Assembly (NCBI GenBank): GCA_964595945.1 | Contig: CAZQSL010000009.1 | Span: 1-49,903, forward strand | Direction of reading: 5' to 3' | Length of the DNA stretch: 49,903 nt | DNA from: an uncultured bacterium | GTDB lineage: Bacteria; UBP15; UBA6099; JAJRTR01 | In this document: piece after piece, positions 1,910-43,579 of the stretch | How the letters are laid out: each line of letters starts with the position of its first letter | How positions within the stretch are numbered: the first letter of the stretch is position 1 | Notes under the pieces: model-generated | What the model saw: only the letters and a program-made list of their open reading frames with translations | Databases searched by the model: none | Told to the model about the DNA's origin: nothing | Position numbers and translations under genes: made by a program

Positions 1910-2038
1910 CAACAATGATATGAGTTCGGGGGACGCCTCGTTATTTGGCGTCCCTTTCCCTTATTCATCATCCAATTGCCGTCGGAGGCAGTCGATCGTT
2001 TATCACCATAAGGCCAAAATGATGGGAGACTTGTCTGG

Positions 2039-12305: not shown

Positions 12306-13277
12306 TTAAATACTTAGCAGCTGTTTTTTTCCATGAGTCGAACGCCATTCGCCGGGCGGCATACCGCAAAATGATTTAAATGCTTTGCTTAAGCTCGCCT
12401 CCGAGTCGTATCCTGTGACCATGGCGATTTCCTTAGTAGCGATTCCCGTGTTTTCGAGATATTCAGCAGCGATGTTCATACGAAGGTTTTTGAGATAGCA
12501 CATGGGTGACATGCCGACCATGCTGCTGAATCTCGCAGCGAATGGAGAACGGGACATGCCGACGCATTCCGCCAGTTCTTCAACGGTCCACGCATGGGCA
12601 GGCCTGCCGTGAAGCGCTGCAAGAGCGGAGGCTATCCGGGTATCCTTAAGTGCGCCAAGCCAGCTCGCTGCTTCCTTTTCATTGGCGGAATCGAGCCATG
12701 TCCGCAGCACGTGTACGAAAAGTATTTCGGCCGCGCGCGCAAACACGAGCTTTGCCCCCGGCAGTTTCAGGCTGGACTCTTCGATGACAAAGGCAAGTAT
12801 CATATCCAATGTCTCGGGGGTTTCATTGAGTTTACATGTCAGCGTCATTACCGTGGGGAGCAGTGGCAATATGAGTTTTTCGCGCCCCGGACTGCATCTG
12901 AAAGATCCGGAGAGCATGTCGGTTTCCATTATTTCAGAGGTTCGGTTGTCATATACGCAGTAGGCCTGTCCCCGCGTCATCACGATCATTTCTCCCCTGT
13001 TAAGCATGCGTTCCTGCGATTCCGAAGCGAGTTTAATGCTACAGCCGCCACGCACTATGTAGTAGAAATGAATCATGTTGTCGGGCGGCATTTCAAGCGT
13101 CCACGGAGAGGACTGGCGCGTTCGCGCGAAATTATGGCCCTGAAGTCCCATGAAATGAAGTACGTCCGCAAGTACATCGGGCCTCTCTTCAGAAGGATTG
13201 GTGTTATGAATTAAAATTTCCATGTTGGGACTCCCGGACAAGTATTCAGGACTGTTGAGCATTGTTATGGTATCCAT
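12306..13277 (-). CDS. AraC family transcriptional regulator (N-terminal cupin-like sensor, C-terminal HTH)
   Basis: C-terminal AraC-type HTH (TVEELAECVGMSRSPFAARF...SKAFK). Transcribed divergently from the PLP-enzyme operon. Confidence 0.8.
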   Translation of the reverse strand: MDTITMLNSPEYLSGSPNMEILIHNTNPSEERPDVLADVLHFMGLQGHNFARTRQSSPWTLEMPPDNMIHFYYIVRGGCSIKLASESQERMLNRGEMIVMTRGQAYCVYDNRTSEIMETDMLSGSFRCSPGREKLILPLLPTVMTLTCKLNETPETLDMILAFVIEESSLKLPGAKLVFARAAEILFVHVLRTWLDSANEKEAASWLGALKDTRIASALAALHGRPAHAWTVEELAECVGMSRSPFAARFSSMVGMSPMCYLKNLRMNIAAEYLENTGIATKEIAMVTGYDSEASLSKAFKSFCGMPPGEWRSTHGKKQLLSI

Positions 13278-13445
13278 CTTACTATATTGTTGTTTTCAGG
13301 ACAAATGCAATTGCTTAAGTTTGCAGGACATCATTCTCGGGCGGTTAAAAATAGCGGGAATAGCGTCCATAGTTGGAATAATTGCGGATTCTGCAATTGT
13401 CTCAAATTCATCTATCGAAAATATCCATCTCGGGAGGCGCGAAAT

Positions 13446-14888
13446 ATGAAGACCATACCGGAAAAAGGTTTATGCAAAAATGATGTTCTCGGCGATCTTG
13501 AGTCATTCAGGGTAAAAGACCTTGACTGGCGTAGCGGGAAGGTATTCGGGTTCATTTACGATGTGGACGAAGAGCTGCGCGAGGTGGTCAAGGAATCATA
13601 CATGATGTACCTCGTGGAGAACGGGCTGGACCCCACGAGTTATCCGAGCATATTGAGGATGGAAAACGAGATAGTGGCAATGGTCGGCGGCGATCTCCTG
13701 CGGGGAGGCGACAAAGTAGTCGGGAATGTCACGTCAGGGGGCACGGAAAGCATCATGATGACAGTGCTTGCGGCCCGCAACCGCGCCCGGGCGCTGCACC
13801 CGGAAATTACTGCACCGGAAATCGTGATGCCATTCACCGCGCATGCGGCTTTTTACAAGGCGTCTCACTATCTCGGAGTCAAGATTGTGACAGTGCCGGT
13901 CAAGGATGATTCTTTCGAGGCGGACCCGGCCGCTATGCGTGAGGCGGTGAATGACAATACGATCCTGATCGTATGCTCCGCGCCCGGATATGCTCATGGT
14001 GTAATTGATCCGGTCAGAGAAATAGCGGCCATCGCTGTCGATAAAAACATCCTTTGCCATGTGGATTGCTGCGTAGGCGGTATACACCTTTCAATCATGC
14101 GCAGAATGGGTGAGCCGGTGCAGGATTTTGATTTTTCGGTGCCTGGCGTCACAAGCATCAGCGTAGACATGCACAAGTATGGCTATTCGGCGAAAAACTG
14201 CTCTCTGATCCTGTATCGCAGCCGTGACGTGCGGCGCTACCAGATTTTTGCATGCGCCAAGTGGCCTGGTTATACGATTGTCAATCCTGTCGCGAGCAGC
14301 AGCAGGACGGGCGGTCCGTTTGCCGCAGCGTGGGCAGTGCTGAATTTTCTCGGCGTCGATGGATACACGCGCATTGTCAGCGATGTAATGAAGGCCACCC
14401 GTCTCGTCATCGACGGCATCAACCGTATCCCAGGCCTGAAGATAAACGGAAATCCGCAGATGTGCATGTTCTCATTTATCTCCGAAGACCCGAAACTGAA
14501 CGTTTACCGCATCGCCGATGAAATGAAAATCAGAGGCTGGTACATTCAGCCCCAATTTGCACGAGGCAATTCACGATCGAGCATACATATTTCATTCACA
14601 TATATCAACGTCAGTCAGGCCGCAGATATGCTACGCGATCTCAAAGCGTCCGTCGAAACCATCCGCAGCCAGCCGGAAATGAAAATGGCCGACTTTTCAG
14701 CACTGGCATCCAGTCTTCAAGGGCTGGACGAGGAAGGGCTGCTTGACATGCTCGAAATGATCGGCGCAAGCGGCGGAAATATGCCCGACAGGATGGAGCC
14801 TGTAAACAGACTTCTTGAATCCCTGCCGGATGACCTTGAGGAATTTATTATTTCCTCGTTTTTCAACACGATGCAGAAAGCGCAATGA
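13446..14888 (+). CDS. PLP-dependent group II decarboxylase-fold enzyme, sphingosine-1-phosphate lyase-like
   Basis: TSGGTESI motif. PLP-lysine motif SVDMHKYGYSAKNCSLILYRS matches the SPL SADTHKYG-like signature. GGGAGG RBS before the ATG at 13446. The ORF-track start at 13287 is an upstream extension. Confidence 0.75.
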   Translation: MKTIPEKGLCKNDVLGDLESFRVKDLDWRSGKVFGFIYDVDEELREVVKESYMMYLVENGLDPTSYPSILRMENEIVAMVGGDLLRGGDKVVGNVTSGGTESIMMTVLAARNRARALHPEITAPEIVMPFTAHAAFYKASHYLGVKIVTVPVKDDSFEADPAAMREAVNDNTILIVCSAPGYAHGVIDPVREIAAIAVDKNILCHVDCCVGGIHLSIMRRMGEPVQDFDFSVPGVTSISVDMHKYGYSAKNCSLILYRSRDVRRYQIFACAKWPGYTIVNPVASSSRTGGPFAAAWAVLNFLGVDGYTRIVSDVMKATRLVIDGINRIPGLKINGNPQMCMFSFISEDPKLNVYRIADEMKIRGWYIQPQFARGNSRSSIHISFTYINVSQAADMLRDLKASVETIRSQPEMKMADFSALASSLQGLDEEGLLDMLEMIGASGGNMPDRMEPVNRLLESLPDDLEEFIISSFFNTMQKAQ

Positions 14889-14919
14889 CGGCATATACAC
14901 TTGAAAAGGGGAGAGGGGC

Positions 14920-15963
14920 ATGGCTGAAGAACGAACACTTTATCCTAATTGGCAATCGCTTTGCGAATCCGGCTACTTCAGGCAGCTACCTGACGGCAGG
15001 CTCGAACTCATTGCGCCCGACGTCGACGGAATTATTGATTTCCACACGCATCTGGGGTGGACTGTCCTGCTCGCAAAAAAAGTCGACCTGCTGAAAAGAC
15101 ACCCTGAAACACTGCATGATTTCAATCGCAAACTGAAGGTGGACCTCAGCGTTTACTCGGGTGTCAACTTCTACAACGAGCGCCCCAAATGGGGTAGCGA
15201 AGACTATGTGCCCGCTGCAATTTCTCCATTCACCAATGGCATTCACCATACGCACACGGTACCTAATATCGTCTGGGACATGGATCCACTGAAGATACGG
15301 AAATCCGTGATACTGTCGCTCGACATCAAACTCGGACCGATCCTTTCAGACAACAATTACAGATTCGGCGAAGCGATCAGAAAAGGCGCGCCTGACAGAC
15401 TTGTATTCTTCTGCACAGTACATCCCAGACACCCGCGCCGCGAAAAAGTCATCGAAGACTCCCTTGCGATGGGAGCTATGGGCATGAAAATCCACCCTGA
15501 GATGCTGCTCATGTCGATGCAGGCGCCTGAGATGATAAGCCTCTTGAAACTCTGGAACAAAATCTCGGGCGGGAAACCGGTACTGTTCCACAGCGGATTC
15601 AACGGCTTCGAGCCCAAAAAGGCTCGCGAACACGCCGCCATTGAAACCTATCACTCCGCAGTCGCAGCACTCGAAGGAGGCATCGCCGTACTCGGACACT
15701 CCGCCATGAATCAGTATCGCACAGCCATTGAAATATGCGAAAAATATCCTCACTGCCACCTCGAACTCAGCGGACAGCCCAAGTCACACCTTCGGGAAAT
15801 GCTCGACCGGCTTGGCCCGGATCGCCTGCTGTACGGATCCGACTGGCCCGTATATCCACAGGCCATCCCCATCACAAAAATACTTATGGCAACAGAAGAC
15901 TGTCGTGAATACCGCAAAAAACTCCTTTACGACAATGCCGCAAAACTGCTCTCGCTCACATAA
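14920..15963 (+). CDS. Amidohydrolase-2 family metal-dependent hydrolase (TIM barrel)
   Basis: DFHTHLGW start-of-barrel motif and C-terminal LYGSDWP motif. Strong RBS AAAGGGGAGAGGGG. Confidence 0.75.
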   Translation: MAEERTLYPNWQSLCESGYFRQLPDGRLELIAPDVDGIIDFHTHLGWTVLLAKKVDLLKRHPETLHDFNRKLKVDLSVYSGVNFYNERPKWGSEDYVPAAISPFTNGIHHTHTVPNIVWDMDPLKIRKSVILSLDIKLGPILSDNNYRFGEAIRKGAPDRLVFFCTVHPRHPRREKVIEDSLAMGAMGMKIHPEMLLMSMQAPEMISLLKLWNKISGGKPVLFHSGFNGFEPKKAREHAAIETYHSAVAALEGGIAVLGHSAMNQYRTAIEICEKYPHCHLELSGQPKSHLREMLDRLGPDRLLYGSDWPVYPQAIPITKILMATEDCREYRKKLLYDNAAKLLSLT

Positions 15964-16023
15964 AATATCTTGCTCTCCCACATGGAAACACCTGCAATCT
16001 GAGGCAATATACATGGAGTCGCT

Positions 16024-16899
16024 ATGGACGTGAAATACCTGATATTCATTGGCCTTGCCATGCTGACCCCTGCCATCGAAAACATTGGTCTGGGACTGCA
16101 AAAACTGGCCATAGATAAAATTCCGGCAGCAAATGGCCGCCTGAAAAAATCAGGTTGGACATTCGTGTGGATACTTGGCTTTGCACTGACGATTGTCGTC
16201 GCACTACTGATCTTCAAGACAATGTCACTTGGCAACGCATCAACAGTCGGCGCCTTCAGCGGATTCGGGCTGATCGTTCTTGCTCTGTTCTCACGATTTG
16301 TGCTGAAAGAAAAAATCCTTCCTCGTGAATTGATCGGGATTCTCATCATAATGTCAGGCACATCACTGATCGGGTATTTCAGTCACGGTCACCAGAATAC
16401 ATCGGTTGATTATGACAGTGAGAAACTCCTCATATTCATCCTTTGCCAAGCCTGCCTAATTGGTGCGGGATTTGCCGTGACCGTCAAGGCGCCTCGTCTT
16501 GCCGGAGTAATTCTGGGTATTATTGCGGGGAGCATAGCCGGATTATCGGTCACCACGCAGAAAATACTGTCGCACACATTTCTCGGGCTTTTCCGAGATC
16601 CGCTCCACGCCGACTATGCAGCAATCGCTCTGACTCCAGTCACATGGATTATGGTGCTGTACGGAATCGGAGGAGTCGTTTTGCTGCAATTCGCATATAA
16701 AAAAGGAAAAGCAGTGCAAGTAGTCCCTTCCCGCGCGACCGGTGCAATCCTGACACCCCTCATTGCGGGAGTCGCCTTGCTCAATGAATCAGTGCCGCCA
16801 CTCAGCCTTCTCGGCACATTGGTGATAATTGCCGGCATCATAGTTACCACCACAGCCAATCCAGCCAAAGCAGAGCATCATGGTGTCTCTATGAAATGA
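16024..16899 (+). CDS. Polytopic membrane protein, DMT superfamily (EamA/NIPA-like)
   Basis: About 9-10 hydrophobic helices. Duplicated EamA-like halves. Lies in the same operon as the PLP enzyme and amidohydrolase. Confidence 0.55.
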   Translation: MDVKYLIFIGLAMLTPAIENIGLGLQKLAIDKIPAANGRLKKSGWTFVWILGFALTIVVALLIFKTMSLGNASTVGAFSGFGLIVLALFSRFVLKEKILPRELIGILIIMSGTSLIGYFSHGHQNTSVDYDSEKLLIFILCQACLIGAGFAVTVKAPRLAGVILGIIAGSIAGLSVTTQKILSHTFLGLFRDPLHADYAAIALTPVTWIMVLYGIGGVVLLQFAYKKGKAVQVVPSRATGAILTPLIAGVALLNESVPPLSLLGTLVIIAGIIVTTTANPAKAEHHGVSMK

Positions 16900-16953: not shown

Positions 16954-19900
16954 TCATTCAGACGATACAAGCCATGTCTGGAAATGGTCGGGGTGAGTGA
17001 AATCCATGAAGAGCGAGACTTGCCGTTCGAGTTCAGGGAATAGTGCCGTTGCCTGTTCGATGTCGTTTTCTCGGGCGGCGATTTCGACGGCTGAGGCCGA
17101 GGCCCGAAGCTGTCTTGCGGCAACAATGGCGGCGTCGCCGTTGATTTTGTGCGAAACGGCCCTGATCGTATCGAAGTCTTTGGCTTCGATTCCCTGTATG
17201 ATGAGTTCGACATAGCCATCGATGCGCGAGCGAACACGTTCGACAAACTCGGAAGCATATTCCATGTCGTCATCATAGATAGTCTTGAATTCAGCGCGGT
17301 CGATGACATCGGCTCCTGGGGCCTGGTTTTCGCAGGATGGATGTGTGTTCTTTGGCTTGTTATCGTGTAGATGAATGGCGGAATGCATATTGCCGGACTC
17401 CATTGGAGTCTGTTTGATATATCGTTTGATCATGTTGGTCAGACTGTCAGGCAGGACAGGTTTGATGAGGTACTCGTCCATGCCCGATGCGAGCCCGCGA
17501 GCGCGGTCATCGGAGAAAGCGTAAGCGGAAAGGCCCACGATAGGTGTATGGCGACCGGTGGTGGTTTCCCAGTTGCGAATGCTTTGAGTCGCTTCGAAAC
17601 CATCGACGACCGGCATCTGGCAATCCATAAGTATGAGATCGTAACTGCCAGACATTGCCTTTTCGATCGCGATTGCGCCATTGTGCGCAATATCGCAGTC
17701 GGTTATACCGATGCGGTCGAGCATTTCCGTGATGACCATTTGATTGGTTTGATTGTCCTCGACGATGAGCAGGCGAGGGGAGCCATTGGCGAGAGTGAAC
17801 GATTCGAAGGAATCATCTTTGGAAGAATCGTTCATTATGCTGGCGGCAATTTCGAGGTTGACGGTAAACGAGAAAACCGCTCCGCCGTAGTCATTGTTTC
17901 CGGCACTGATCGAGCCGCCCATAGCTTCGACGATTTCGCGTGAGATGGAGAGGCCGAGGCCAGTGCCGCCGTTACTGTCGTGTAGTTGTGCGAATGGCTG
18001 GAAGAGTCCCTCGATGAGGTTATCGGGTATCCCGATGCCGGTGTCACTGACAGTGAAAGTCACGGGCGCATGCGAGTCGCCCGTGTCCTCGATCGCACAT
18101 GTGACGCTGATCGTTCCCCGTGAGGTGAATTTGATGGAATTGCCTACGAAGTTGACGAGCACCTGTCTGAGGCGCAGTCTGTCGGATTTTACACAAATGT
18201 ATTTGGAACCATGGAAAGTGGTTTTCAATACGAGTCCCTTTTCCTTTGCCTTGTGAGCCAGGAGACTGTCGATGTCAGTGAGGATTTCGTAGAGATTGAA
18301 AGTCTCGTTTGCGAGGGTGATGGCGCCGGCTTCGATGCGTGAAAAATCGAGGATGTCGGTAATGAGGCTCATCAGATGATCGGAGGCGGAAACGATGCTG
18401 TCAGTATACGATGCTGCTTTTTGTGGCAGTCCGAGGTCATTGAGCAGACGTCCGAATCCAACTATGGCGTTAAGCGGGGTGCGAAGCTCGTGGCTGATTT
18501 TTGACAGAAATACACTTTTGGCCCTGTTTGCGGATTCGGCTTTTTCCTTTTGGGTGATCAGTTCCGATTCGAGTTTCTTGAGACGGGTGATGTCGATTTG
18601 TGTGCCAGCCATACGGATTGGTTTGCCGTCGGGGTCGCGTTCGATGATTTTCCCACGGTTGAGCACCCATGAATATGATCCGTCGCAACTTTTCAGACGA
18701 TATTCTATTTCATACTTGCCGCTGACGCCTGTTATATAGTGTCTGAGTGTTTCAGCGACGTGCAGTTCGTCATCCGGATGGAGGAGTTCCTTCCAGACTG
18801 TGAGGGCAGAAATGCAGGGGTATGGCTCATAGCCGAGCATTGTCGCCCAACGGTCGTTGAGAGTTATTTCATCGGCGGGGATATTCCAGTCCCATATGCC
18901 GATGTCAGCGCCGAAGATCGCCATTTCAAGCCTTTCGCGGCTCTCCTGAAGCTGTTTTTCTGCAAGTTTTCTCTGTGTGATGTCTTCTGCGATGCCGGCA
19001 GTTCTGAGATTTTCGCCTTCCGTGCCAGCGACGACCCATGACTTGGTGCGTACCCATTTGATGGCTCCGCTTGGTGTGAAGATGCGGAACTCCTGATCGA
19101 AGACACCATTGTTTCTGAAGTCGTTATAATAAATCGTTTTCATCTTTTCGCGATCTTCTTCGACAATATAGTTGCCAAAAAGGGCCGGATTGTCATATAG
19201 TTCGTCGCGGGGGCGTTCCCATATCTGTTCATAGATTGGGCTGATATAGAGGACTTTATCGTTTGATCGAAGCCAGAAAATCTCGTTGACATTTTCTGCG
19301 ATCTGGCGGAATCTGTTTTCGCTTTCGCGAAAAGCGTCTTCCGCGAGTTTTCTGTCGTTGATATTTCTTTTGACCCCCTGAAATCCGATGTGTTTTCCGT
19401 TGGCGTCGAAAATAGGTTTTGTGATCACCTCCACCCAGCATAGGGAGCCATCCTTGCATGCGTGCTGGATCGTGAATTCACCGATTTGGCATTCCTCATA
19501 AACATCGATCGAGGCGAGCCTTGATTGTACTTCTTCGACTGCTTCCGGCGTGATGAATGCAAACAGGTTTTTCCCTATGAGATCATCGACTGTATATCCT
19601 GTCATCGCCTCTTCGGATTTGTTGACATAAGTAAAGTTGAGATCTCTGTCCATTTGCCAGACGACATCGATGATGTTTTCCGTGATGAAGCGGTATTTCG
19701 ATTCGCTTTCGAGTAATTGTTTCTCAGCGATTTTTCGCGAAGTGATATCTCTGATAATCGAGAGTGCTCCTATGTATTTTCCATCGCTGTCGAGGAGGGG
19801 AGTGAGATTGATTTCAGTCGGAAAAACAGTACCGTCCGCCTTGATGTGATCGATTTCCCTTACGACAGATACGGCATGCTCCCTTGCGGTCTGGTAGATT

Positions 19901-20835
19901 TCCGCTATTGCCGCCACACCTTCGGCAGTGACGAATTGTGAATAGTGAAGGCGTGTGACGTCAGTGCCCGGAGGGATGCCGCAGATTTTGTAAGCGACTG
20001 GCGAAGCGAACCTGATGAGGCCGTCCGGAGCTATCAGCACTATGGCATCGGGGGCGGCGTTGATGAGTGTCTGCGAGAGGATTTCAGCGTCTTTGCGTGC
20101 CGCATCAGCGTCGATAATGTCAGATATGTCCTGGATCGCGACAATAATCCCCCTGTTGACTTCGCGGCCCAATAGACATCCGGACATGAGGGCGGTGAAA
20201 ATCCTGCCATCCTTTGCCATAAATTCGATCTGTTTTTCTGAAATCACACCGGTTGTCTTCAATTCGTCGAGAAAAATAATGCGATTCTTTATGTCGAGAT
20301 ACATTTCCTGCGCTTTCGCCCTGGTAAGGTCCTCGGGGAGTTTCAGCAGGAGTCTGGCTTTTTTATTGGCAAATAAAATATGGCCGTCGAAATCCGTAAT
20401 TAAAATGGATACCGGGGCGAATTCCGCTATGATTTTGAATTTATCCCGGGAGACATCCTTGAAGGCACTGGTGTAGTGCGCTTCGTAAGACCTGTCTCGC
20501 ATTGTCACGGTGCACAGTCCGTCATCGGAAGGGATTGCGGTGCATTCGATCACGATCTGTTCGGCGAAAATGGTCTTTTCGATAATATCGCTCTGAGGGG
20601 TATTGGTCGAAAAAGCCGCATTTATCAGTTCCTCGACATTATCCACAATCGAGTCATGGAGCACGGTGTTGAGAGGCTTGTTCAGGCTGTCCGGGGGGAT
20701 TTGGAAGATGAAGCCATCTCTGGGGTTGTGACAAAACAGCAGTATACTCCCGGAGTCGACAATCAGCACCATATCCCTGATACCGTTCATCAGGGATGTC
20801 ATGATGGATTTTCCGTAATCTGTAATTGGACCCAT
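16954..20835 (-). CDS. Hybrid sensor histidine kinase with multiple PAS/PAC domains, HisKA, HATPase_c, receiver and C-terminal HPt domains
   Basis: At least five PAS-like repeats. H-box SHELRTPLN. HATPase G-boxes (DTGIGI, GGTGLGL). REC with LLIVEDN...D. HPt helix-bundle tail. Confidence 0.85.
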   Translation of the reverse strand: MGPITDYGKSIMTSLMNGIRDMVLIVDSGSILLFCHNPRDGFIFQIPPDSLNKPLNTVLHDSIVDNVEELINAAFSTNTPQSDIIEKTIFAEQIVIECTAIPSDDGLCTVTMRDRSYEAHYTSAFKDVSRDKFKIIAEFAPVSILITDFDGHILFANKKARLLLKLPEDLTRAKAQEMYLDIKNRIIFLDELKTTGVISEKQIEFMAKDGRIFTALMSGCLLGREVNRGIIVAIQDISDIIDADAARKDAEILSQTLINAAPDAIVLIAPDGLIRFASPVAYKICGIPPGTDVTRLHYSQFVTAEGVAAIAEIYQTAREHAVSVVREIDHIKADGTVFPTEINLTPLLDSDGKYIGALSIIRDITSRKIAEKQLLESESKYRFITENIIDVVWQMDRDLNFTYVNKSEEAMTGYTVDDLIGKNLFAFITPEAVEEVQSRLASIDVYEECQIGEFTIQHACKDGSLCWVEVITKPIFDANGKHIGFQGVKRNINDRKLAEDAFRESENRFRQIAENVNEIFWLRSNDKVLYISPIYEQIWERPRDELYDNPALFGNYIVEEDREKMKTIYYNDFRNNGVFDQEFRIFTPSGAIKWVRTKSWVVAGTEGENLRTAGIAEDITQRKLAEKQLQESRERLEMAIFGADIGIWDWNIPADEITLNDRWATMLGYEPYPCISALTVWKELLHPDDELHVAETLRHYITGVSGKYEIEYRLKSCDGSYSWVLNRGKIIERDPDGKPIRMAGTQIDITRLKKLESELITQKEKAESANRAKSVFLSKISHELRTPLNAIVGFGRLLNDLGLPQKAASYTDSIVSASDHLMSLITDILDFSRIEAGAITLANETFNLYEILTDIDSLLAHKAKEKGLVLKTTFHGSKYICVKSDRLRLRQVLVNFVGNSIKFTSRGTISVTCAIEDTGDSHAPVTFTVSDTGIGIPDNLIEGLFQPFAQLHDSNGGTGLGLSISREIVEAMGGSISAGNNDYGGAVFSFTVNLEIAASIMNDSSKDDSFESFTLANGSPRLLIVEDNQTNQMVITEMLDRIGITDCDIAHNGAIAIEKAMSGSYDLILMDCQMPVVDGFEATQSIRNWETTTGRHTPIVGLSAYAFSDDRARGLASGMDEYLIKPVLPDSLTNMIKRYIKQTPMESGNMHSAIHLHDNKPKNTHPSCENQAPGADVIDRAEFKTIYDDDMEYASEFVERVRSRIDGYVELIIQGIEAKDFDTIRAVSHKINGDAAIVAARQLRASASAVEIAARENDIEQATALFPELERQVSLFMDFTHPDHFQTWLVSSE

Positions 20836-20968
20836 AAGTGTTTTGTACCATTATTCACAAATGTCTTATATGGATTTTCCCCCATTTCTAACAATACAAA
20901 CAAATTTGGGCTCCAAATGTTTCTGGATAACGGTTGGGGCACGTGAATTCCCGACCTGATTCTTACAA

Positions 20969-20997
20969 TTGACCGCGAAGGGGAAATCAGGGATAAT
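20969..20997 (+). promoter_or_regulatory. Candidate sigma70 promoter of the BMC operon (TTGACC-17 nt-GATAAT)
   Basis: Seen in sequence, about 35 nt upstream of the eutN ATG. Spacing is exactly 17 nt. Confidence 0.4.
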
Positions 20998-21031
20998 AAG
21001 CAGATACATTTTATGGTGGGAGTGACGGCAC

Positions 21032-21319
21032 ATGGTACTCGGACGCGTCATAGGCACAGTAGTTGCAACACAAAAGAGTGATTCGCTAACGGGCAGAAAG
21101 CTGATGATGGTGCGCACACTCGATGTCGATCTCAAGCCGACGGAGGAGTATTTCGTTGCTGTGGATGCCGTGGGCTGCGGCAATGATGAAGTTGTGCTCT
21201 GCTCGAAGGGAAGCTCGGCGCGCCAGACTCCCCAGACAAAGAATACTCCCTCGGACATGGTTATTCTCGGCATCGTCGATTACGTTGATATCGATGGGCA
21301 GCAGATTTTCAAAAAGTGA
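21032..21319 (+). CDS. eutN: BMC vertex (pentamer) protein, EutN/CcmL/PduN family
   Basis: MVLGRVIGTVVATQK N-terminus and family length. GGGAG RBS. Confidence 0.9.
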   Translation: MVLGRVIGTVVATQKSDSLTGRKLMMVRTLDVDLKPTEEYFVAVDAVGCGNDEVVLCSKGSSARQTPQTKNTPSDMVILGIVDYVDIDGQQIFKK

Positions 21320-21422
21320 GTGCTGCCGCACAGTTTTCCATTCATGGTATGGCGGGATGGTGTTTTTTCAGTGTACATAATTATGGAATTAAAAAACATA
21401 TAAGGTTTATATGGAGGGTAAA

Positions 21423-21725
21423 ATGGAAAGCCGAATAGCACTTGGACTCATCGAAACCCGCGGACTCGTCGCCGCTATCGAAGCTGCTGACGCAATGGTC
21501 AAGGCAGCCAATGTCACTCTCGTCGGGAAAGAATACATCGGCGGAGGCTATGTCACCATCCTCATCAGAGGCGATGTAGGCGCTGTCAAGGCAGCCACGG
21601 ACGCAGGGGCTGCGGCAGTCGAAAAAATCGGTGAACTCGTCTCCGTACACGTCATTCCCAGACCGCACACCGATGTCGAACTTATCATACCCACCAAAGG
21701 CGTCGCTCCGAAAGCTACTAAATAA
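21423..21725 (+). CDS. eutM: BMC-H hexameric shell protein (EutM/PduA type)
   Basis: [27 protein letters not shown] canonical BMC domain. The upstream in-frame ATG GAGGG at 21411 more likely acts as the RBS. Confidence 0.9.
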
Positions 21726-21772
21726 GACTCCGGCGTTTCGGCTGACAATAGCGTTTCGCAATCATTCTTCGC

Positions 21773-21812
21773 GACGCACCGCGCCGTCTGCACACCGGCG
21801 GCGCGGTGCGTC
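21773..21812 (+). promoter_or_regulatory. Perfect 14-bp GC-rich inverted repeat (GACGCACCGCGCCG / CGGCGCGGTGCGTC, 12-nt loop) between the shell gene and eutB
   Basis: Seen directly. No downstream U-tract, so an intra-operon mRNA processing/stability or attenuator element is more likely than a terminator. Confidence 0.45.
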
Positions 21813-21826
21813 ATACGGGAGTTCTG

Positions 21827-23200
21827 ATGAAGCTTTCCACCACGATCAGAGGCCATTCTTATTCTTTCACCTCAGTTAAGGATGTCCTCGCAAAAGCTAA
21901 TGAGGAAAAATCCGGCGATACCCTCGCGAAGGTCGGCGCATTGTCCGATCTGGAGCGCATCGCCGCCAAACACGTACTTAGCGAACTCACTCTCGAAGAC
22001 CTTCGCAATAATCCCGTCGTACCCTATGAGGAAGACGAAGTGACGCGCGTCATCGACGACCAGGTCAACGAGACTATCTATGCTGACATCAAAAACTGGT
22101 CAGTCGGCGAGCTGCGCGAGTATATCCTCAAACCCACGACCACTAATCACCACATCCGCCGCATTTCCAACGGCCTGACATCCGAAATGGTTGCCGGGTG
22201 CGCGAAGCTTATGGGCGCTATGGACCTGATACTCGGCGCACAAAAGATCGAAGTGGTCGTTCACGCAAACAACACGATAGGACTTCCCGGCACACTTGGT
22301 TCGCGCCTCCAGCCCAATCATCCCACCGATGACATTGACGGCATACTTGCTTCGGCAAAGGAGGGGCTGGCCTACGGCTGCGGCGATGCGGTCATTGGCG
22401 TAAACCCTTGCATCGATTCACCCAAGAAGGTCACCGAAATCCTCAAGGCGCTCGAAGAAGTCCGCCTGAAGTGGGACATACCGACGCAGTTGTGCGTACT
22501 CGCTCACGTCACCACACAAATGGAAGCCATCAAACTCGGCGCGCCCACCGGCCTCACATTCCAGTCGCTCGCCGGCAGCGAAGCCGCCTGCAAGGCGTTC
22601 GGCATAAATGTCGCGATGCTCGACGAGGCATACGAACTTTCTAAAAAATACAACAATGCCGCCGGTCCCAATGTCATGTACTTCGAGACAGGGCAGGGGT
22701 CCGAACTATCCTCTAACGGACATCACGGCGCCGACCAGACAACACTCGAAGCCCGCTGCTACGGCCTCGCGAAACGCTATAGTCCTTTCATGGTCAATTC
22801 CGTCGTAGGATTCATCGGCCCAGAATATCTCTTCAATGGACGGCAGGTGATACGCGCCGGACTCGAAGATCATTTCATGGGCAAGCTCACCGGCATTTCG
22901 ATGGGCCTCGACTCCTGCTACACCAATCACATGGACACCGATCAATCCGACATAGAAAACCTCGCCGTGCTGCTGACCATGGCTGGCATCAATTTCTTCA
23001 TGTGCGTGCCGATGGGCGATGACATCATGCTCAACTACCAGCTCACATCGTTCCATGACATCGCCGCGCTACGTGAAATCTGTGGCAAACGTCCCGCGCC
23101 GGAATTCGAACAGTGGCTCGAAAAAATTGGTCTCATGGAAAACGGCCGCCTCACAAAGCTCGCGGGCGACGCATCTTTTTTTGACGGGGAGGCCCGATGA
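21827..23200 (+). CDS. eutB: Ethanolamine ammonia-lyase large subunit
   Basis: Full-length EutB similarity (MKLSTTIRG...). GGGAG RBS. The ORF-track GTG at 21806 is an upstream extension. Confidence 0.92.
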   Translation: MKLSTTIRGHSYSFTSVKDVLAKANEEKSGDTLAKVGALSDLERIAAKHVLSELTLEDLRNNPVVPYEEDEVTRVIDDQVNETIYADIKNWSVGELREYILKPTTTNHHIRRISNGLTSEMVAGCAKLMGAMDLILGAQKIEVVVHANNTIGLPGTLGSRLQPNHPTDDIDGILASAKEGLAYGCGDAVIGVNPCIDSPKKVTEILKALEEVRLKWDIPTQLCVLAHVTTQMEAIKLGAPTGLTFQSLAGSEAACKAFGINVAMLDEAYELSKKYNNAAGPNVMYFETGQGSELSSNGHHGADQTTLEARCYGLAKRYSPFMVNSVVGFIGPEYLFNGRQVIRAGLEDHFMGKLTGISMGLDSCYTNHMDTDQSDIENLAVLLTMAGINFFMCVPMGDDIMLNYQLTSFHDIAALREICGKRPAPEFEQWLEKIGLMENGRLTKLAGDASFFDGEAR

Positions 23201-24048
23201 GCCAGTCGGACGATCTCAGGAAACTCATAGCGGAAGTTGTCCGCGACGTGCTCGAAGAAACAGGGGCAACAGCTCAGGCCGAACCTGCCACAACATACGG
23301 CGCTGACGGTGACGATCTGCGGAACCGTGTGCTCATGCCATGTGAAAAGCAGCGCGCGGCTCTTGAAAAAATGCGCCAGTCAACCCCCGCCCGTATCGGC
23401 GTCTGGCGCGCGGGAGCACGCTATAAAACCGAATCCTACCTCAAGGCGCGAGCCGATCATGCCGTCGCACGTGATGCTGTCCTCATATCGCTCGATAAGG
23501 CGAAAATCGAACAGCTCGGCATCCTGTATGTCGATTCGGCCGCCGCTAACAAAACGGAATTTCTCATCAATCCCTCGCTTGGCCGCCGACTGTCCGATGT
23601 GTCCGCCGAATCCGTAAAGGCGAATTGCCCGTCGGAAACTGACGTTCAGATCGTCATCTGCGATGGCCTTTCATCGGCTGCCATCGAACTCAACATTGCT
23701 TCGTTCCTTCCGGCACTTATGAATAACCTTCAGGGCAAGGGCCTCAAACTCGGCAAACCAATCTATGTGAATAACGGACGCGTTGCCGTGCAGGATCAGA
23801 TCGGCGATATCCTTCGCCCACGTATCGCACTCAGCATCGTCGGCGAACGCCCCGGACTCGTGACTGCCGAATCGATGGGCTGTTACATTACTTACAATCC
23901 ATCATCCGAACGCGTCGAAGCCGAGCGCACCATGATTTCCAATATCCACAAAGGTGGACTGCATCCGCAGAAAGCAGCTGTGGAAATTGCAGAAAAGACA
24001 CGCAAAATTTTCGATCAGAAAGCCTCAGGAATGGGCTTCAAGGAGTAA
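23197..24048 (+). CDS. eutC: Ethanolamine ammonia-lyase small subunit with N-terminal amphipathic encapsulation-peptide-like helix
   Basis: ATGA overlap with eutB. VAVQDQIGDILRPRIALSIVGERPGL core. N-terminal DDLRKLIAEVVRDVLEE. Confidence 0.9.
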   Translation: MSQSDDLRKLIAEVVRDVLEETGATAQAEPATTYGADGDDLRNRVLMPCEKQRAALEKMRQSTPARIGVWRAGARYKTESYLKARADHAVARDAVLISLDKAKIEQLGILYVDSAAANKTEFLINPSLGRRLSDVSAESVKANCPSETDVQIVICDGLSSAAIELNIASFLPALMNNLQGKGLKLGKPIYVNNGRVAVQDQIGDILRPRIALSIVGERPGLVTAESMGCYITYNPSSERVEAERTMISNIHKGGLHPQKAAVEIAEKTRKIFDQKASGMGFKE

Positions 24049-24056
24049 TCACCAAG

Positions 24057-24710
24057 ATGCCTCTCGAACCAGTAAAACCAAAAGTCCTTGCCGCACGGAT
24101 TATTCCGCGCGTCAACGATTTCTATCATAAGCAACTTGATCTTCTGCCCGAAGAAGCGTGCATCGGCATGATTACGGCCACGTCCGACGATGCAACATAC
24201 GTATCGCTCGACCACGCGACTAAAGCCGCACAGGTGCGGGTCGTTTATGCCGAATCATTCTACGCTGGCGCGGGAGCGGCGTCCGGCCCACTGAGCGGCG
24301 AAGTCATCGGCATCATTTCAGGCACTGATCCGTCCGAGGTGAAAAGTGGCCTCGACGCGGCCATACAGTACCTTGAAGAAAGCGCGTGGTTCTACACCGG
24401 CGACGACGATGGACACCTCGTATTCTTTCCGCATGTCATTTCACGCGCTGGCGCATATCTGTCCGATCTCGCGCAGGTGCCTTTCGGCAGTCCTCTTTCA
24501 TATCTCATCGCGCCCCCTATCGAAGCCATGTACGCAATGGACCGTTCGCTCAAGGAAGCGGATGTGCAGATGCAGGTGTTCTGGGGTCCGCCGTCGCACA
24601 CCAACTTTGCTGGATGCCTGCTGACAGGTTCGCAAAGTGCGTGTCAGGAATCGGCAAAAGTGTTTTCAGATGCAATCATTGAAGTGGCAGCAAACCCGAT
24701 GCGATTCTGA
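24057..24710 (+). CDS. eutL: BMC-T tandem-domain shell protein EutL
   Basis: Length and sequence are typical of EutL. AGGAG RBS. Confidence 0.85.
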   Translation: MPLEPVKPKVLAARIIPRVNDFYHKQLDLLPEEACIGMITATSDDATYVSLDHATKAAQVRVVYAESFYAGAGAASGPLSGEVIGIISGTDPSEVKSGLDAAIQYLEESAWFYTGDDDGHLVFFPHVISRAGAYLSDLAQVPFGSPLSYLIAPPIEAMYAMDRSLKEADVQMQVFWGPPSHTNFAGCLLTGSQSACQESAKVFSDAIIEVAANPMRF

Positions 24711-24786
24711 TCTGTCGCAGACAAATGTATTTTTGGCCGGATTACCGAATCCCGGCGAAACAAAATAACGGTCAAGAGTGATCACA

Positions 24787-26229
24787 ATGGACAAAGACCT
24801 CGCAGGAATACAGGAAGCACGCGACAAGGTGGCGGCCGCGGTTGCCGCGCAAAAACTACTCGCCGAATTTTCCCAGGAGAAGATCGACCGAATTGTCGCC
24901 CGCATGTGTCAGGCAGGAGCACAGGCAGCCGAAAAGCTCGCGCGTATGGCTGTCGAAGAATCCGGCATGGGCAAAGTTGACGACAAAACCGCGAAAAACG
25001 AACTCGCCACCAGCGGGCTGTATGAATATATTAAGGATATGAAAACCGCAGGCATCGTCAGTGAAGACAAGACGCGAAAAATGTGGGAAGTGGCCGTACC
25101 GGTCGGCGTAGTCGCGGCGATCACGCCCACCACCAATCCAACGTCTACAACGATGCACAATGCGATAGTGGCGATGAAGGCCCGTTGCGCCTCGGTCATC
25201 AGCCCACATCCGCGCTCGAAGAACTGTTCTGCCGAAGCCATCGGCATACTGATGGCGGCGGCGCATTCAGCCGGCGCACCCGAAGGCTCGCTTAATTGTC
25301 TTACATCAGGCACGATGGGTGGCACGACTGAAATAATGAAGAACAGCGGCACGTCGGTCATCGTCGCCACCGGTGGTTCCGACATGGTTCGCGCGGCATA
25401 TTCATGCGGAAAACCGGCCTATGGCGTTGGCCCCGGCAATGTCCCCGCATTCATAGAACGAACCGCCGACATCGAAAAAGCGGTCCGCGATGTCCTGATT
25501 TCAAAATCATTCGATTATGGTGTGATATGCGCGTCCGAACAGGCCATTGTCACTGAAAGGCCAATTCGCGACAAGGTTATTGCGTCGCTTAAACGCAATG
25601 GAGCTTATGTGATGAACACCGATGAAATTGCTAAAATCAATAAAATCATACAGACTCCGGCAGGTGGCCTCAACGCTAAAATTGTCGGGCAGAGCGCCGA
25701 AAAGCTGGCTCAGATGGCAGGATTCAGCGTGCCGAAAAACACGCCCGCACTCGTCGGTGAAATCGACGGCGTTGGGAAAGCATATCCACTTTCCCGCGAA
25801 AAACTCGCCCCGATCCTCGCGCTCTATGTAGAAGACGGATGGGAAAGCGCGTGCGCGCGCTGCATGGAAATGCTCGAATATGGTGGTATTGGTCACACAC
25901 TCGGGCTCCATACGACGAACATTGACCTTGTCAAGGAATTCGCTCTCAAAAAACCTGTCGCACGTCTCATCGTAAATTCGCCGACAACACATGGCGCGGT
26001 TGGTCTTTCTACCGGACTTGCCCCGTCGTTTACACTCGGGTGCGGCGCGGTCGGCGGCACTATTACGACCGACAACATCACGCCCATGCACCTGATAAAT
26101 CTAAAACGTGTAGCGTTCGAACTGAAATCCTTCAACAAGCCCTCCGGCCCGGTCACTACTGATGATGGCGACCTCTCGGGCACAATCCGCAAAGTTGTTT
26201 CACGTCTCATGAAAGAGCAGGCAAAATGA
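24787..26229 (+). CDS. eutE: CoA-acylating acetaldehyde dehydrogenase EutE
   Basis: ALDH fold with catalytic Cys in GVICASEQ. The start could instead be the GTG at 24778. The C-terminal tail [29 protein letters not shown] resembles a linker plus encapsulation helix. Confidence 0.85.
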
Positions 26230-26990
26230 AGAGAGAAGTCCTGACTGAAATAAAACTTCGCGCCCTGAAAAAACAGGGCATTAATCAGGTGGCAATCACC
26301 GAAGGTACGCTTGTCACGCCATCAGCGCGCGACTTTGCCCGGCAGGCTGGCATAACTGTCACGGTCAACGAAGCATCTGTCGCCACGTCCGCGCCTTCGA
26401 AGACAGCCGGGAAATACACTCCGCCCGTAGCGCCAAAAGGCTCCTTCACTAACAGCTATACTGGCGAATCGCTCGATGCGAAACCCGAACATTTTACACA
26501 TCTGCAAGGCAATGTGCTTGTGCAGAAGAATCACCCGCGCATTGCATTCCGTGGCCAGATCGACAAAATTCAGGCCTACGTCGTCGAAGCTCAGATACTT
26601 GCGAAACAGGAGAAAATACCCGCTCTCGAATCAGACCTCGACGATGTGCTCAAGCTCCTGCGCGAGATTATGCGCGCCGAAGTACGCGACGTACCGCTTG
26701 CTGATGTTCCGGTTTTCGGTCTTACTGTCGAGCAACTCCGGGAGGCGTCACACAATCCAGCTAAATTTTTCAATACCGGCCATACGCTTGCCGATAAAAA
26801 TTCGAGCATGGCGGTCGCGCGTATCAACATCATGCGGACCATCGTCCGCGAGGCCGAAATCACCGCGCTTGACGCATTCGCGGGCGGTGTCACTCTCAAG
26901 CCCGAACGCAGTGATATTCTAACTGCCATGAACCGCCTTTCGAGCGCGTTTTACATCTTGATGTGCAAATATTCTGGAGGGTCGGAATGA
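26226..26990 (+). CDS. eutT: EutT-type ATP:cob(I)alamin adenosyltransferase
   Basis: ATGA overlap with eutE. N-terminal LTPSARDF motif and C-terminal ILTAMNRLSSAFYILM motif align to Salmonella EutT. Confidence 0.8.
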   Translation: MKREVLTEIKLRALKKQGINQVAITEGTLVTPSARDFARQAGITVTVNEASVATSAPSKTAGKYTPPVAPKGSFTNSYTGESLDAKPEHFTHLQGNVLVQKNHPRIAFRGQIDKIQAYVVEAQILAKQEKIPALESDLDDVLKLLREIMRAEVRDVPLADVPVFGLTVEQLREASHNPAKFFNTGHTLADKNSSMAVARINIMRTIVREAEITALDAFAGGVTLKPERSDILTAMNRLSSAFYILMCKYSGGSE

Positions 26991-27655
26991 GCGCACGCGA
27001 AGACCAGATCGCCGCGCGAATACTCGCGGAACTAAATAAGGATAAAACGCAGGCGGCGCCAGGCGCGCGATGCAAACTTGACCGCAAATCCATACCAGTC
27101 GGCATTTCCAACCGTCACCTGCACCTCTGCCGGGCCGATCTTGACGCGCTATTCGGTTCGGGGTATGAACTTTCGAAAAAGAATGACCTGTCGCAGAAAG
27201 GGGAATTCGCTTCGAACGAACTGGTCACGCTCACCGGCCCACGGGGCAGCATAGAAAAGGTTCGAGTGCTCGGCCCGCTTCGCCCGGAAACACAGATTGA
27301 AATTTCTCCGACTGATGCCCGCCGCCTCGGAGTGATGCCCCCAGTGCGTCTTTCCGGAGATACCAAAGGCACGCCTGGCCTCACTATCAAGGGGCCGGCT
27401 GGCGAAGTGAAAATGAATTCCGGGCTGATCATCGCCAAGCGTCATCTGCACGCCAATCCCGAACAGGCCAAAGTGCTCGGACTCCGCGATGGCGATGTCA
27501 TCAGCATAAGGGCGCTGACCGAACGGCCCACAATATTCGAAGGCGTGTCAGTCAGAGTGCGCCCGTCATTTGAAATCGAACTCCACATCGATGTGGACGA
27601 AGCCAACGCCGCGATGATAAATAACGGCGACTCAGTCGAAATTGTGAGGAAATAA
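26987..27655 (+). CDS. pduL: PduL-type phosphotransacylase (phosphate acetyl/propanoyl-transferase) with N-terminal encapsulation peptide
   Basis: ATGA overlap with eutT. GGAGG RBS. Duplicated PduL half-domains. Confidence 0.85.
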   Translation: MSAREDQIAARILAELNKDKTQAAPGARCKLDRKSIPVGISNRHLHLCRADLDALFGSGYELSKKNDLSQKGEFASNELVTLTGPRGSIEKVRVLGPLRPETQIEISPTDARRLGVMPPVRLSGDTKGTPGLTIKGPAGEVKMNSGLIIAKRHLHANPEQAKVLGLRDGDVISIRALTERPTIFEGVSVRVRPSFEIELHIDVDEANAAMINNGDSVEIVRK

Positions 27656-27957
27656 TGGCTAAATACAGATTCATAAAAACTCCGACCCGCAACACCATAG
27701 AAATCATCAAGCGCCGGCTCGTAAGCCGTGACCGTGCCGACGAACTCGACTGGACGGCAGTCGGCCTTGTGCAATGCAGTGTGGCCGACATCATCTACGC
27801 ATCCGATGTTGCCGAAAAAACTTCCGATATAATCGCGCTCGAACTCTCCGGCACATGCCCGCAGCACATCACCACTCTTGCGTTGTTCGGCGAAACGGCG
27901 GCGGTCGACGCGGCGCTCGAATCAGTCAAACGCGCTCTCGCCGAGACCGAATGCTGA
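27655..27957 (+). CDS. Circularly permuted BMC shell protein (EutS/PduU type)
   Basis: About 100 aa with a permuted BMC fold. TAATG overlap with pduL. Confidence 0.8.
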   Translation: MAKYRFIKTPTRNTIEIIKRRLVSRDRADELDWTAVGLVQCSVADIIYASDVAEKTSDIIALELSGTCPQHITTLALFGETAAVDAALESVKRALAETEC

Positions 27958-27995
27958 CACGGTGAAACATATATAAAGGATTAAGGTGGGAATCA

Positions 27996-29321
27996 TTGAA
28001 CCGCGATGAACTCGTAAAAATTGTCAGGGACGCTGGAATTGTTGGCTGCGGCGGCGCGGGGTTCCCAACGCACGTCAAGGTCAATGCCAGCGCCGAAGTG
28101 GTGATCGCTAACGGCGCATCGTGCGAACCGCTCCTGCATTCGGACATCCATCTACTCGAACACGAGGCCGGAGGCGTAGTGCGCGGACTGCGTTATGTGA
28201 TGGATGCCGTCGGCGCGAAACGCGGTGTCATTGCCATCAAAAAGAAACATCCAGAAGCCATTTCCGCGGTGGAGCGAGTACTCACAACCGGGATTGAAAT
28301 TTTTACGCTCGAAGATTTTTATCCCGCTGGCGATGAACAGGTTCTCGTATATGAAATCATGGGCAAAATTGTGCCTGAAGGGGGCATTCCGCTCAATGTC
28401 GGCGCGGTTGTGGACAACATCGAAACGCTGTTCAACATCACTCGCGCAGTCGATGGATTCCCCGTCACGCACAGGTGGCTGACGGTAGCGGGAGCAGTGA
28501 GGAAACCCCGCGTGATGCTCGCTCCCGTTGGTGCGCCACTTAGTGAAATACTCGCGCTCGCGGGCGGTGCCACTGTCACGAGTGCCGGCTATATCGAGGG
28601 CGGTCCGATGATGGGCAAAATCATTGACATCGAAACTGCCGTCGTCAAAAAGACCACCACCGGACTGCTTGTTTTTCCGGCTGATCATGTGATTTTTACA
28701 CGCCGCGAAATGTCAATCGAAGCGATCATCAGGCGCGGCATGTCTGCCTGCACGCAATGTACTTACTGTACGGACATGTGCCCGCGATACCTGATCGGCC
28801 ATCGACTGCGCCCCAATCTCACGATGCGCTCCGTCGCGTTCAGCCATTTCGATCCCGAAGGCCCGGCTTCCGATGCCCTTATTTGCTGTGAGTGTGGAGT
28901 CTGCGAAACGACTGCCTGCAATCTCGGCCTGTCGCCGATGCGCGTGAACATGATGCTGAAGAAAAGATATGCGGAAGAGGGCGTAAAATTCAAACGGACG
29001 GAAACGGCGCTCGAAGTCCATCCGTTCAGGTATGCACGGCTCACGCCGATCAAAAATATCATGCAGCGCGGCGACATGCTTGAATGGTACGGGCAGAAAT
29101 TATCAGATGTTACTGAGCTTTTCACGCAACGAGTGGAAGTGCCTCTTAGCCAGCACATAGGCGCTCCTTGTGAAGCTATCGTAGCTCCTGGAGCAAAGGT
29201 GAAGCTGTTCGAAATGATAGGCAAACCATCCGATGGAAAACTCGGCGCGCCGGTGCATTCACCGATAGACGGAACTGTAAAAGATATTACTGACGGAAGA
29301 ATAACAATTGAGGCGAAATGA
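27996..29321 (+). CDS. pduS: PduS-like cobalamin reductase (RnfC/NqrF-like flavin-NAD domain plus two 4Fe-4S clusters)
   Basis: N-terminal GIVGCGGAGFPTHVK motif. Cys clusters CTQCTYCTDMCP and CCECGVCETTAC. TTG start after AAGGTGGG RBS. Confidence 0.8.
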   Translation: MNRDELVKIVRDAGIVGCGGAGFPTHVKVNASAEVVIANGASCEPLLHSDIHLLEHEAGGVVRGLRYVMDAVGAKRGVIAIKKKHPEAISAVERVLTTGIEIFTLEDFYPAGDEQVLVYEIMGKIVPEGGIPLNVGAVVDNIETLFNITRAVDGFPVTHRWLTVAGAVRKPRVMLAPVGAPLSEILALAGGATVTSAGYIEGGPMMGKIIDIETAVVKKTTTGLLVFPADHVIFTRREMSIEAIIRRGMSACTQCTYCTDMCPRYLIGHRLRPNLTMRSVAFSHFDPEGPASDALICCECGVCETTACNLGLSPMRVNMMLKKRYAEEGVKFKRTETALEVHPFRYARLTPIKNIMQRGDMLEWYGQKLSDVTELFTQRVEVPLSQHIGAPCEAIVAPGAKVKLFEMIGKPSDGKLGAPVHSPIDGTVKDITDGRITIEAK

Positions 29322-29875
29322 TGCAGCGAACAATCGGAATGGTTGAATTTCTCAGCGTCGCTAAGGGCATCGAAGGTATCGACGTAATGCTCAAGGCGGC
29401 GGATGTGCAGCTACTTGCGGCAAAACCACTCTGTCCCGGCAAATACATGGTGATGGTAGGCGGCGACGCGGCAGAAGTGGACAGTTCCGTGCAGGCAGGC
29501 ATCAGACATGGCTCGCACTTCATCGTCGGTTACACCTGCATCAACAATGTCCATGAAATGGTGTTCCCTGCGATATGGGGCACTTCAAAATACGACTTGC
29601 GCGCGCTCGGTGTCGTAGAGACTTACAACGTCGTAACAGCAGTTCGCGCAGCCGACATCGCGGCGAAATCAGCCGACATCGAATTGATCGAGCTCCGGCT
29701 TTCGGTTGGCCTCGGCGGCAAGGCATTCATCACACTAACCGGATATGTAGACGCCGTACAGACAGCAGTGGATGCCGGGGCGGCGCTCGCCAACGCTACG
29801 GGCGAACTCGTCAGCAGCGTGGTTATCGCAGCTCCTCATCCTGATTTACACAGGGCGATCAGTACGCCCGTCTGA
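29318..29875 (+). CDS. pduT: BMC-T tandem shell protein, PduT-like
   Basis: 185 aa, two BMC domains. ATGA overlap with pduS. Confidence 0.8.
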   Translation: MMQRTIGMVEFLSVAKGIEGIDVMLKAADVQLLAAKPLCPGKYMVMVGGDAAEVDSSVQAGIRHGSHFIVGYTCINNVHEMVFPAIWGTSKYDLRALGVVETYNVVTAVRAADIAAKSADIELIELRLSVGLGGKAFITLTGYVDAVQTAVDAGAALANATGELVSSVVIAAPHPDLHRAISTPV

Positions 29876-30207
29876 TGAAAAATGACGACTCACACAGGTG
29901 CGATATGGGAAAACTTATTACGAAAAAAGAGATTGTAGAAGCAAACGCGAAACACTTTTCGGAACTCGAAGTGCCATGCGACGCCATCATCACCCCACTT
30001 GCGCAGGATGCCGCGAAACAATATGGCATCGAGATCGTAAAGTCGGGCGGCCCAAGCCGCGCGTGTGACGTACGCTCGCTTCAGGGCGGAGCGGTCGATG
30101 AGGCGGCCATCGAGAAAATCGCGCGCATGGCAATAAGCGACCTCGGTGATAAAGCCGACCTCGAAACGGTCATCCGCATTGTCGAAAAAGTCGTCAGGAA
30201 AATGTAG
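29875..30207 (+). CDS. Small BMC-operon protein homologous to the N-terminal domain of EutT (ITPLAQD motif) with an amphipathic C-terminal helix
   Basis: ATGA overlap with pduT; the start could instead be the ATG at 29905 after an AGGTG. Motif EVPCDAIITPLAQDAAKQYGIEIV parallels EutT QVAITEGTLVTPSARDFARQAGITVTV. The C-terminal DLETVIRIVEKVVRKM resembles the EutE tail [14 protein letters not shown]. Confidence 0.6.
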   Translation: MKNDDSHRCDMGKLITKKEIVEANAKHFSELEVPCDAIITPLAQDAAKQYGIEIVKSGGPSRACDVRSLQGGAVDEAAIEKIARMAISDLGDKADLETVIRIVEKVVRKM

Positions 30208-30771: not shown

Positions 30772-30838
30772 TACAAGCAGTTCGCAATTATTGCGACTGC
30801 CCAATGCGGCATATGGATTTCCACATGCCGCATTGGGC

Positions 30839-31699: not shown

Positions 31700-31716
31700 G
31701 CTTCTGATGACCGCCG

Positions 31717-38609: not shown

Positions 38610-38644
38610 GTCGATGAAGTGGCGGAAAAGGCCGCCATGCGGCA

Positions 38645-42034: not shown

Positions 42035-42037
42035 GTT

Positions 42038-43549: not shown

Positions 43550-43579
43550 ATATCTCCTGCCGCATGGATGCTCCGCGGC

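Follow-up and report, generated by a model that had tools for sequence, protein, structure and literature searches.

Ethanolamine utilization (eut) genes are controlled, in the characterised cases, by EutR, EutVW, or EatR (PMC5821096). EatR of Pseudomonas aeruginosa is a sigma-54 enhancer-binding protein that is encoded divergently from eutBC and senses acetaldehyde (PMC5821096), and at PDU1D and EUT2D loci, regulators or kinases with a PocR domain represent the non-EutVW regulators (Axen et al. 2014, PMC4207490). We analysed a giant histidine kinase gene (16954..20835, minus strand) on contig CAZQSL010000009.1 of an uncultured bacterium (49,903 nucleotides, the whole of which is called the window below). 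The gene lies divergent from an EUT2-like bacterial microcompartment (BMC) operon of 12 genes (21032..30207, plus strand), and an earlier note on this DNA had proposed that the kinase may control the operon. We lean, by a small measure, towards an orphan phosphorelay kinase of ordinary kind, specific to its lineage and not dedicated to the eut operon; the best reading of the setting is that signalling-rich genomes carry such lineage-specific orphan PAS kinases in numbers. One genome alone shows the kinase gene and the operon side by side, and this adjacency is the sole evidence for a link between them, and control of the operon by the kinase is neither supported nor refuted by public sequence data.

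The kinase open reading frame (ORF), as previously described, starts with ATG and encodes 1293 residues, and Pfam scans recovered the domains listed for it earlier, with the multiple PAS domains resolving into six. All features of the protein lie on the minus strand. Six tandem PAS modules (residues about 10-751, 18583..20808) precede a HisKA domain (residues 773-837, 18325..18519; PF00512, 8.9e-18) with H782 in the motif SHELRTPLN (SKISHELRTPLN), a HATPase_c domain (residues 885-995, 17851..18183; PF02518, 3.1e-25), a Response_reg (REC) domain (residues 1023-1137, 17425..17769; PF00072, 4.6e-22) with D1071 in LILMDCQMP, and an Hpt domain (residues 1198-1273, 17017..17244; PF01627, 27.2 bits against a cut-off of 24.6) with H1229 in VSHKINGDAA. 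All three phospho-acceptors of a full His-Asp-His phosphorelay are thus present, and the combination of HisKA and HATPase_c with a fused REC and a C-terminal HPt places the protein among the unorthodox hybrid histidine kinases. It has no transmembrane segment: the highest Kyte-Doolittle mean over 19 residues, 1.37, is too low for a membrane helix, and the kinase is therefore soluble and cytoplasmic.

The same HisKA-HATPase-REC-HPt module with the same three phospho-acceptors occurs in ArcB, BarA, TorS, and EvgS. The best NCBIfam matches of the window kinase are indeed of the ArcB/BarA/TorS type (about 320-332 bits, residues about 740-1260), but scores of 323-332 bits against 676.5 for TorS, 838 for ArcB, and 890 for BarA do not make it an ortholog of any of them. 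In contrast to kinases of this type, the window kinase has neither a membrane anchor nor a periplasmic domain and carries its six PAS modules in the cytoplasm; ArcB carries one PAS. The cognate regulators of ArcB and BarA (ArcA and UvrY, respectively) are encoded elsewhere on the chromosome. The window kinase gene is monocistronic and stands alone, with no adjoining response regulator gene. One or more of the PAS modules would sense an intracellular cue, such as the redox state, the energy state, or a small ligand, and the phosphoryl group would then pass from H782 to D1071 and on to H1229, from where the HPt domain would presumably hand it to a response regulator whose gene lies at another site of the genome. 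A kinase of a two-component system, unlike a LysR- or AraC-type protein, has no DNA-binding domain, and therefore the divergent arrangement does not imply any action of the kinase on the shared spacer. The architecture itself is ordinary, and the protein adds a new lineage-specific member to a very common kind.

The six PAS modules were resolved by Pfam scans on thirds of the sensor region, with boundaries at residues of about 20-115, 141-239, 262-365, 380-490, about 530-620, and 657-745, and each module is closed by a D-I-T-x-R-K-like linker (near residues 115, 239, 366, 494, 621, and 751). PAS1-2 (residues 1-250) form the most divergent part of the protein, and few database matches begin before residue 129. 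An AlphaFold2 model of these 250 N-terminal residues reached a predicted local distance difference test score (pLDDT) of 37, too low for use, and a PDB sequence search gave chance-level matches only. Neither a PocR domain (PF10114; E<=0.01 for the full protein and E<=1 for three sensor segments) nor a B12-binding domain was detected by Pfam in the whole kinase or in its sensor segments.

The competing explanation is that the kinase is a dedicated eut sensor, which perceives ethanolamine, acetaldehyde, B12, or redox state through a PAS module and signals by a His-Asp-His-Asp relay to an unlinked DNA-binding regulator acting at the spacer promoter. A fourth form of eut control, with no relation to EutR, EutVW, or EatR, would thereby exist, set on a reduced operon without EutA and EutVW in a deep-branching and poorly sampled diderm lineage. 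We regard it as rather unlikely. The kinase immediately adjoins the operon, divergent across a 196-bp spacer, and its cytoplasmic location is what the sensing of intracellular metabolites requires, but conservation of the gene lends the proposal no support. In the public protein data searched (about 15 billion proteins), an indexed search over 5.8 billion clusters yielded no ortholog, with the best non-self matches at 23-41% identity over partial lengths, and the kinase forms a singleton cluster at 90% identity. An exhaustive phmmer search of 1.84 billion representatives, with residues 1-770 as the query, gave only repeat-level matches of 26-39% to giant multi-PAS proteins, and no match of the sensor region was collinear from residue 1. 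Three of the best-covered homologs lie in chemotaxis, PAS-kinase, or unrelated contexts, with no BMC genes near them, and two of the three, unlike the window kinase, have a receiver gene directly downstream. The operon is likewise isolated. None of the relatives listed combines the eutN-first order with a kinase; the nearest EutB among the matches listed is 69% identical (64-69% for the listed loci) and the nearest EutC 51%.

The lineage itself is poorly sampled. Four of the window proteins that were looked up, the kinase and UvrB included, are singletons at 90% identity, and about ten relatives of UvrB are found at 64-68% identity, after which identity drops to 58%. Three genomic contexts of the 64-68% relatives were inspected, and none of them is syntenic with the window around UvrB. 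TonB/ExbBD or TamB genes occur in two of these three contexts, which suggests that the source lineage is diderm.

Of the described eut control systems, EutVW resembles the present locus in the position of the kinase gene, since EutW is likewise encoded at the edge of EUT2-type loci (Enterococcus, Listeria, and Clostridium). EutW is a soluble cytoplasmic kinase. The likeness ends at the catalytic core. A EutW profile built from 22 sequences aligned by hhalign with residues 740-991 of the window kinase over columns 254-471, covering the DHp (dimerization and histidine phosphotransfer) and CA (catalytic and ATP-binding) domains only, whereas the EutW sensor (columns 1-253) matched nothing in the window kinase. 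The H-box reads HHRVKNNLQ in EutW and SHELRTPLN, of the HisKA type, in the window kinase, and EutW lacks the REC and HPt domains that the window kinase possesses. The EutVW system also includes an ANTAR regulator, and neither such a regulator in the window nor a terminator-type fold in the leader or in the spacer between eutN and the BMC-H gene was found. The EatR gene, like the kinase gene, is divergent from eut genes, but EatR binds DNA and acts at a -24/-12 promoter, whereas the window kinase has neither a DNA-binding nor an AAA+ domain, and the EatR locus of P. aeruginosa, unlike the window, has no microcompartment. As to the PocR-domain regulators, EUT2B and EUT2D loci share PduS with the window operon, but the PF10114 domain present in those regulators is undetected in the window kinase. 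The lack of similarity to the EutW sensor and of a PocR domain both weigh against a dedicated eut function.

The statement made earlier that known eut regulators are absent holds for these 49.9 kb in tblastn, NCBIfam, and Rfam searches. Neither EutV nor EutW (its C-terminal part), both taken from a related locus, was identified by tblastn in the window; EutV reached only the receiver domains of unrelated window proteins, with no ANTAR domain. The sole AraC-type protein of the window had no NCBIfam match to EutR. The claimed absence of a riboswitch was also borne out, as Rfam returned no hits at the gathering score for the whole window; at E<=10 over 20500-21900 it returned nothing relevant, and a counterpart of control by a cobalamin riboswitch or of the EutX type was thus not found there. 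A weak match to flpD at 21784-21818 (24 bits against a threshold of 40) was discarded.

A wider comparison covered 82 more distant EUT loci, taken over about 10 kb around eutB where the contig allowed. EutV and EutW occur together in 31 of them. A PAS-rich or hybrid kinase was found in none (tblastn with the PAS-containing kinase query HK_PAS, E<=1e-4, within about 10 kb of eutB), which also counts against the kinase being a dedicated eut sensor. The kinase core query HK_core matched two loci only, L034 and L042. The kinase of L042 is KdpD-like and lies by Trk genes. In L034, which belongs to Anaerolineae, an OmpR-type regulator and a HAMP-HisKA kinase are encoded at 1479-3956, directly 5' of BMC-H, eutA, and eutB on the same strand; this pair is possibly an alternative two-component regulator of the eut microcompartment. 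An adjacent alternative two-component system is thus seen in one of about 50 compared loci without EutVW. In many of the EUT loci without EutVW, the surroundings of eutB show neither a kinase nor a receiver or ANTAR gene, and hence the lack of a local regulator at such a locus is not unusual. The genes immediately 5' in five of the loci without EutVW are not regulators, and in the actinobacterial loci that begin with eutN, a permease rather than a regulator lies upstream. A full-text literature search returned no paper tying a hybrid histidine kinase to ethanolamine microcompartments.

Several points nevertheless speak against a kinase unconnected with the operon. BMC loci usually carry their own regulator; for EUT2 loci, Axen et al. 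2014 (PMC4207490) found a two-component system in 87%, and the occurrence of a signalling gene at the locus boundary therefore agrees with the general pattern. The window contains none of EutR, EutV, EutW, a PocR domain, an EatR-type arrangement, or a riboswitch, and there is no other plausible regulator within about 8 kb of the operon. Microcompartment operons are normally induced by their substrate. EutW, as a cytoplasmic kinase, provides a precedent for the sensing of ethanolamine in the cytoplasm, and the pair in L034 would illustrate that EUT loci can recruit other two-component systems. Moreover, the spacer common to the kinase gene and the operon is short (196 bp) and AT-rich and could permit co-regulation, and the absence of an ortholog is absence of evidence rather than evidence against a link. 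Against these points stands the abundance of signalling genes in the window, which holds 2 kinases and 3 receiver-domain proteins among about 45 genes; in such surroundings, chance adjacency is not rare, and we roughly estimate the chance that one of the two genes flanking the operon is a kinase at roughly 9%. Also against a dedicated relay, there is no response regulator close by, and the window's one DNA-binding response regulator belongs to a PilS/PilR-like cluster 10 kb past the end of the operon. We therefore continue to give slight preference to an orphan kinase with no dedicated role in eut expression. Should the kinase control the operon after all, a phosphorelay mechanism would be added to EutR, EutVW with its riboswitch small RNA, and EatR, and the locus would show how microcompartment loci, once transferred into distant lineages, obtain new regulators.

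What gives the locus its main value is the operon, an EUT2-like gene set that lacks EutA and EutVW, stems from an under-sampled lineage, and has no known regulator nearby. Its genes, identified by Pfam and NCBIfam, encode, in order, EutN (BMC-P), BMC-H, EutB, EutC, an EutL-type BMC-T, an acetylating aldehyde dehydrogenase, an EutT/PduO-like adenosyltransferase, the PduL phosphotransacylase, a small protein with a weak BMC match, a PduS-like flavoprotein, a PduT-like tandem BMC protein, and a 110-residue protein with a segment like the N-terminus of EutQ. The first gene, eutN, begins with ATG at 21032 on the plus strand (Pfam EutN_CcmL, 3e-31), and the aldehyde dehydrogenase scores 609 bits against TIGR02518, slightly under the cut-off of 620 bits. 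With EutB, EutC, BMC-H, BMC-P, and BMC-T shell proteins, an acylating aldehyde dehydrogenase, and a PduL-type phosphotransacylase, the operon is EUT2-like by the criteria of Axen et al. 2014 (PMC4207490). It shares with EUT2 loci EutBC, PduL, the EutL-type, BMC-H, and BMC-P shell proteins, the adenosyltransferase, PduS, and PduT, but differs from them in having no EutA, no EutVW, and eutN in first place.

The EutA reactivase was not found in the window (best tblastn E 0.28; Pfam on the submitted ORFs), although Axen et al. 2014 (PMC4207490) report it for every EUT type. Among the 82 compared loci, 72 have eutA 5' of eutB. The nearest EutC relatives (46-51% identity), at three loci, are eutBC pairs likewise without eutA, and together with the EutBC of the window they may form a reactivase-independent lyase clade. 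The EutH/Eat transporter, EutG, EutJ, and EutP were not detected in the operon by Pfam either. A segment of the form I/V-TP-x-A-x-D-x-A-x-Q-x-GI is common to the 110-residue ORF (29875-30207) and the N-terminus of the EutT-like protein (26226-26370). It matches the C-terminus of TIGR02536, and the 110-residue ORF also matches the EutQ N-terminus; the shared segment may serve in targeting or encapsulation.

The divergent intergenic region between the kinase gene and eutN (20836..21031) measures 196 bp, as the earlier note had it, with the two genes on opposite strands, and its G+C content is 41%. The kinase start has no obvious Shine-Dalgarno sequence, and with an alternative start at M12 the spacer could reach about 230 bp. 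On the side of eutN, a Shine-Dalgarno-like sequence, GGTGGGAG, lies at 21015..21022 (plus strand), 9 nt before the ATG. The sigma-70-like promoter assigned earlier to the eut operon, TTGACC-17-GATAAT, is present at 20969..20997 (plus strand) and matches in 10 of 12 positions in a promoter scan, but its significance is only marginal: under a first-order Markov model of the spacer, the probability of at least one site of at least 10/12 on that strand is 0.048, and a 5.5-kb scan contains 9 promoter-like sites, this one among them, against 6.0 +/- 2.5 expected. By our reading, four of the eight other 10/12 sites in the window sit just 5' of gene starts, which makes the promoter call plausible. The leader that it implies is about 27 nt long and unstructured (z 0.37 in folding against shuffled sequence). 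Most likely, the eut operon is transcribed from this sigma-70-type promoter of its own via the short unstructured leader, and the factor that makes it inducible would be encoded beyond the window.

Other types of control signal were sought in and around the spacer. An attenuator or ANTAR-type structure in the leader and in the spacer between eutN and the BMC-H gene was rejected, as the folding there is no stronger than that of shuffled sequence. A pattern search for a sigma-54 -24/-12 element gave no match in the spacer at <=2 mismatches, and the element GGCACG-N4-TTCC at about 20938-20951 was dropped as a sigma-54 promoter, since it lacks the invariant G of the -12 box and stays unmatched at that limit. 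The best sigma-54 -24/-12 match of the window, AGGCACAGTAGTTGCA at 21052-21067 (plus strand, one mismatch), falls in codons 7-12 of eutN, where it encodes the conserved G-T-V-V-A, and is most likely a coding coincidence. EatR-type control by sigma-54 thus has no counterpart here, the spacer being without a -24/-12 element and the sigma-54 response regulator of the window (40604-42034) being partnered with its own HAMP-PAS kinase. The spacer also holds short imperfect repeats and a palindrome, ATTTGG-GCT-CCAAAT (about 20903-20917), the judgement of which needs relatives; the repeats are weak, and in this respect the spacer lends little to the proposal of a dedicated eut relay.

On its other side, the kinase gene converges with a gene of the EamA family, with 55 bp between the two 3' ends and a terminator-like hairpin (16919-16902, minus strand) between them. 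The EamA-family transporter gene belongs to an operon (13287-16899) that also encodes an MfnA/GAD-like decarboxylase dependent on pyridoxal phosphate (PLP) and an amidohydrolase, and an AraC-type regulator with Cupin_6 and HTH_18 domains is divergent from it, the region as a whole spanning 12306-16899. The kinase might instead serve this AraC-controlled operon, or coordinate both flanking operons as one amine-metabolism island, which we hold to be very improbable. The closeness of the 3' ends, the amine-making activity of an MfnA/GAD-like decarboxylase, and the uniform G+C content across the region fit such a role, but the operon is already provided with a divergent AraC-type regulator, the convergent layout implies no common transcription with the kinase gene, and comparative support of any kind is missing. 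The proximity of an amine-forming operon to an amine-degrading microcompartment might be fortuitous, or it might not. The AraC-type protein itself (12306-13277), 8 kb from the eut locus, was considered as EutR or PocR and rejected: the family nearest to it is RclR (109 bits, where the cut-off is 400), and it has its own divergent operon. The G+C profile, considered as a possible island boundary joining the kinase and the eut operon, is uniform at about 0.47-0.56 and uninformative.

Beyond the eut operon, a HEPN-domain protein of 164 residues and a protein of 313 residues are encoded on the minus strand at 30310-31780 and converge on the operon end; the 313-residue protein has no Pfam or NCBIfam match, and neither of the two was matched by PADLOC. 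Further along, at 37389-43978 on the minus strand, the genes for a lone receiver protein, the HAMP-PAS kinase, and the sigma-54 response regulator adjoin E and F genes of type II secretion / type IV pilus systems. The cluster looks PilS/PilR-like and is probably unrelated to the eut locus.

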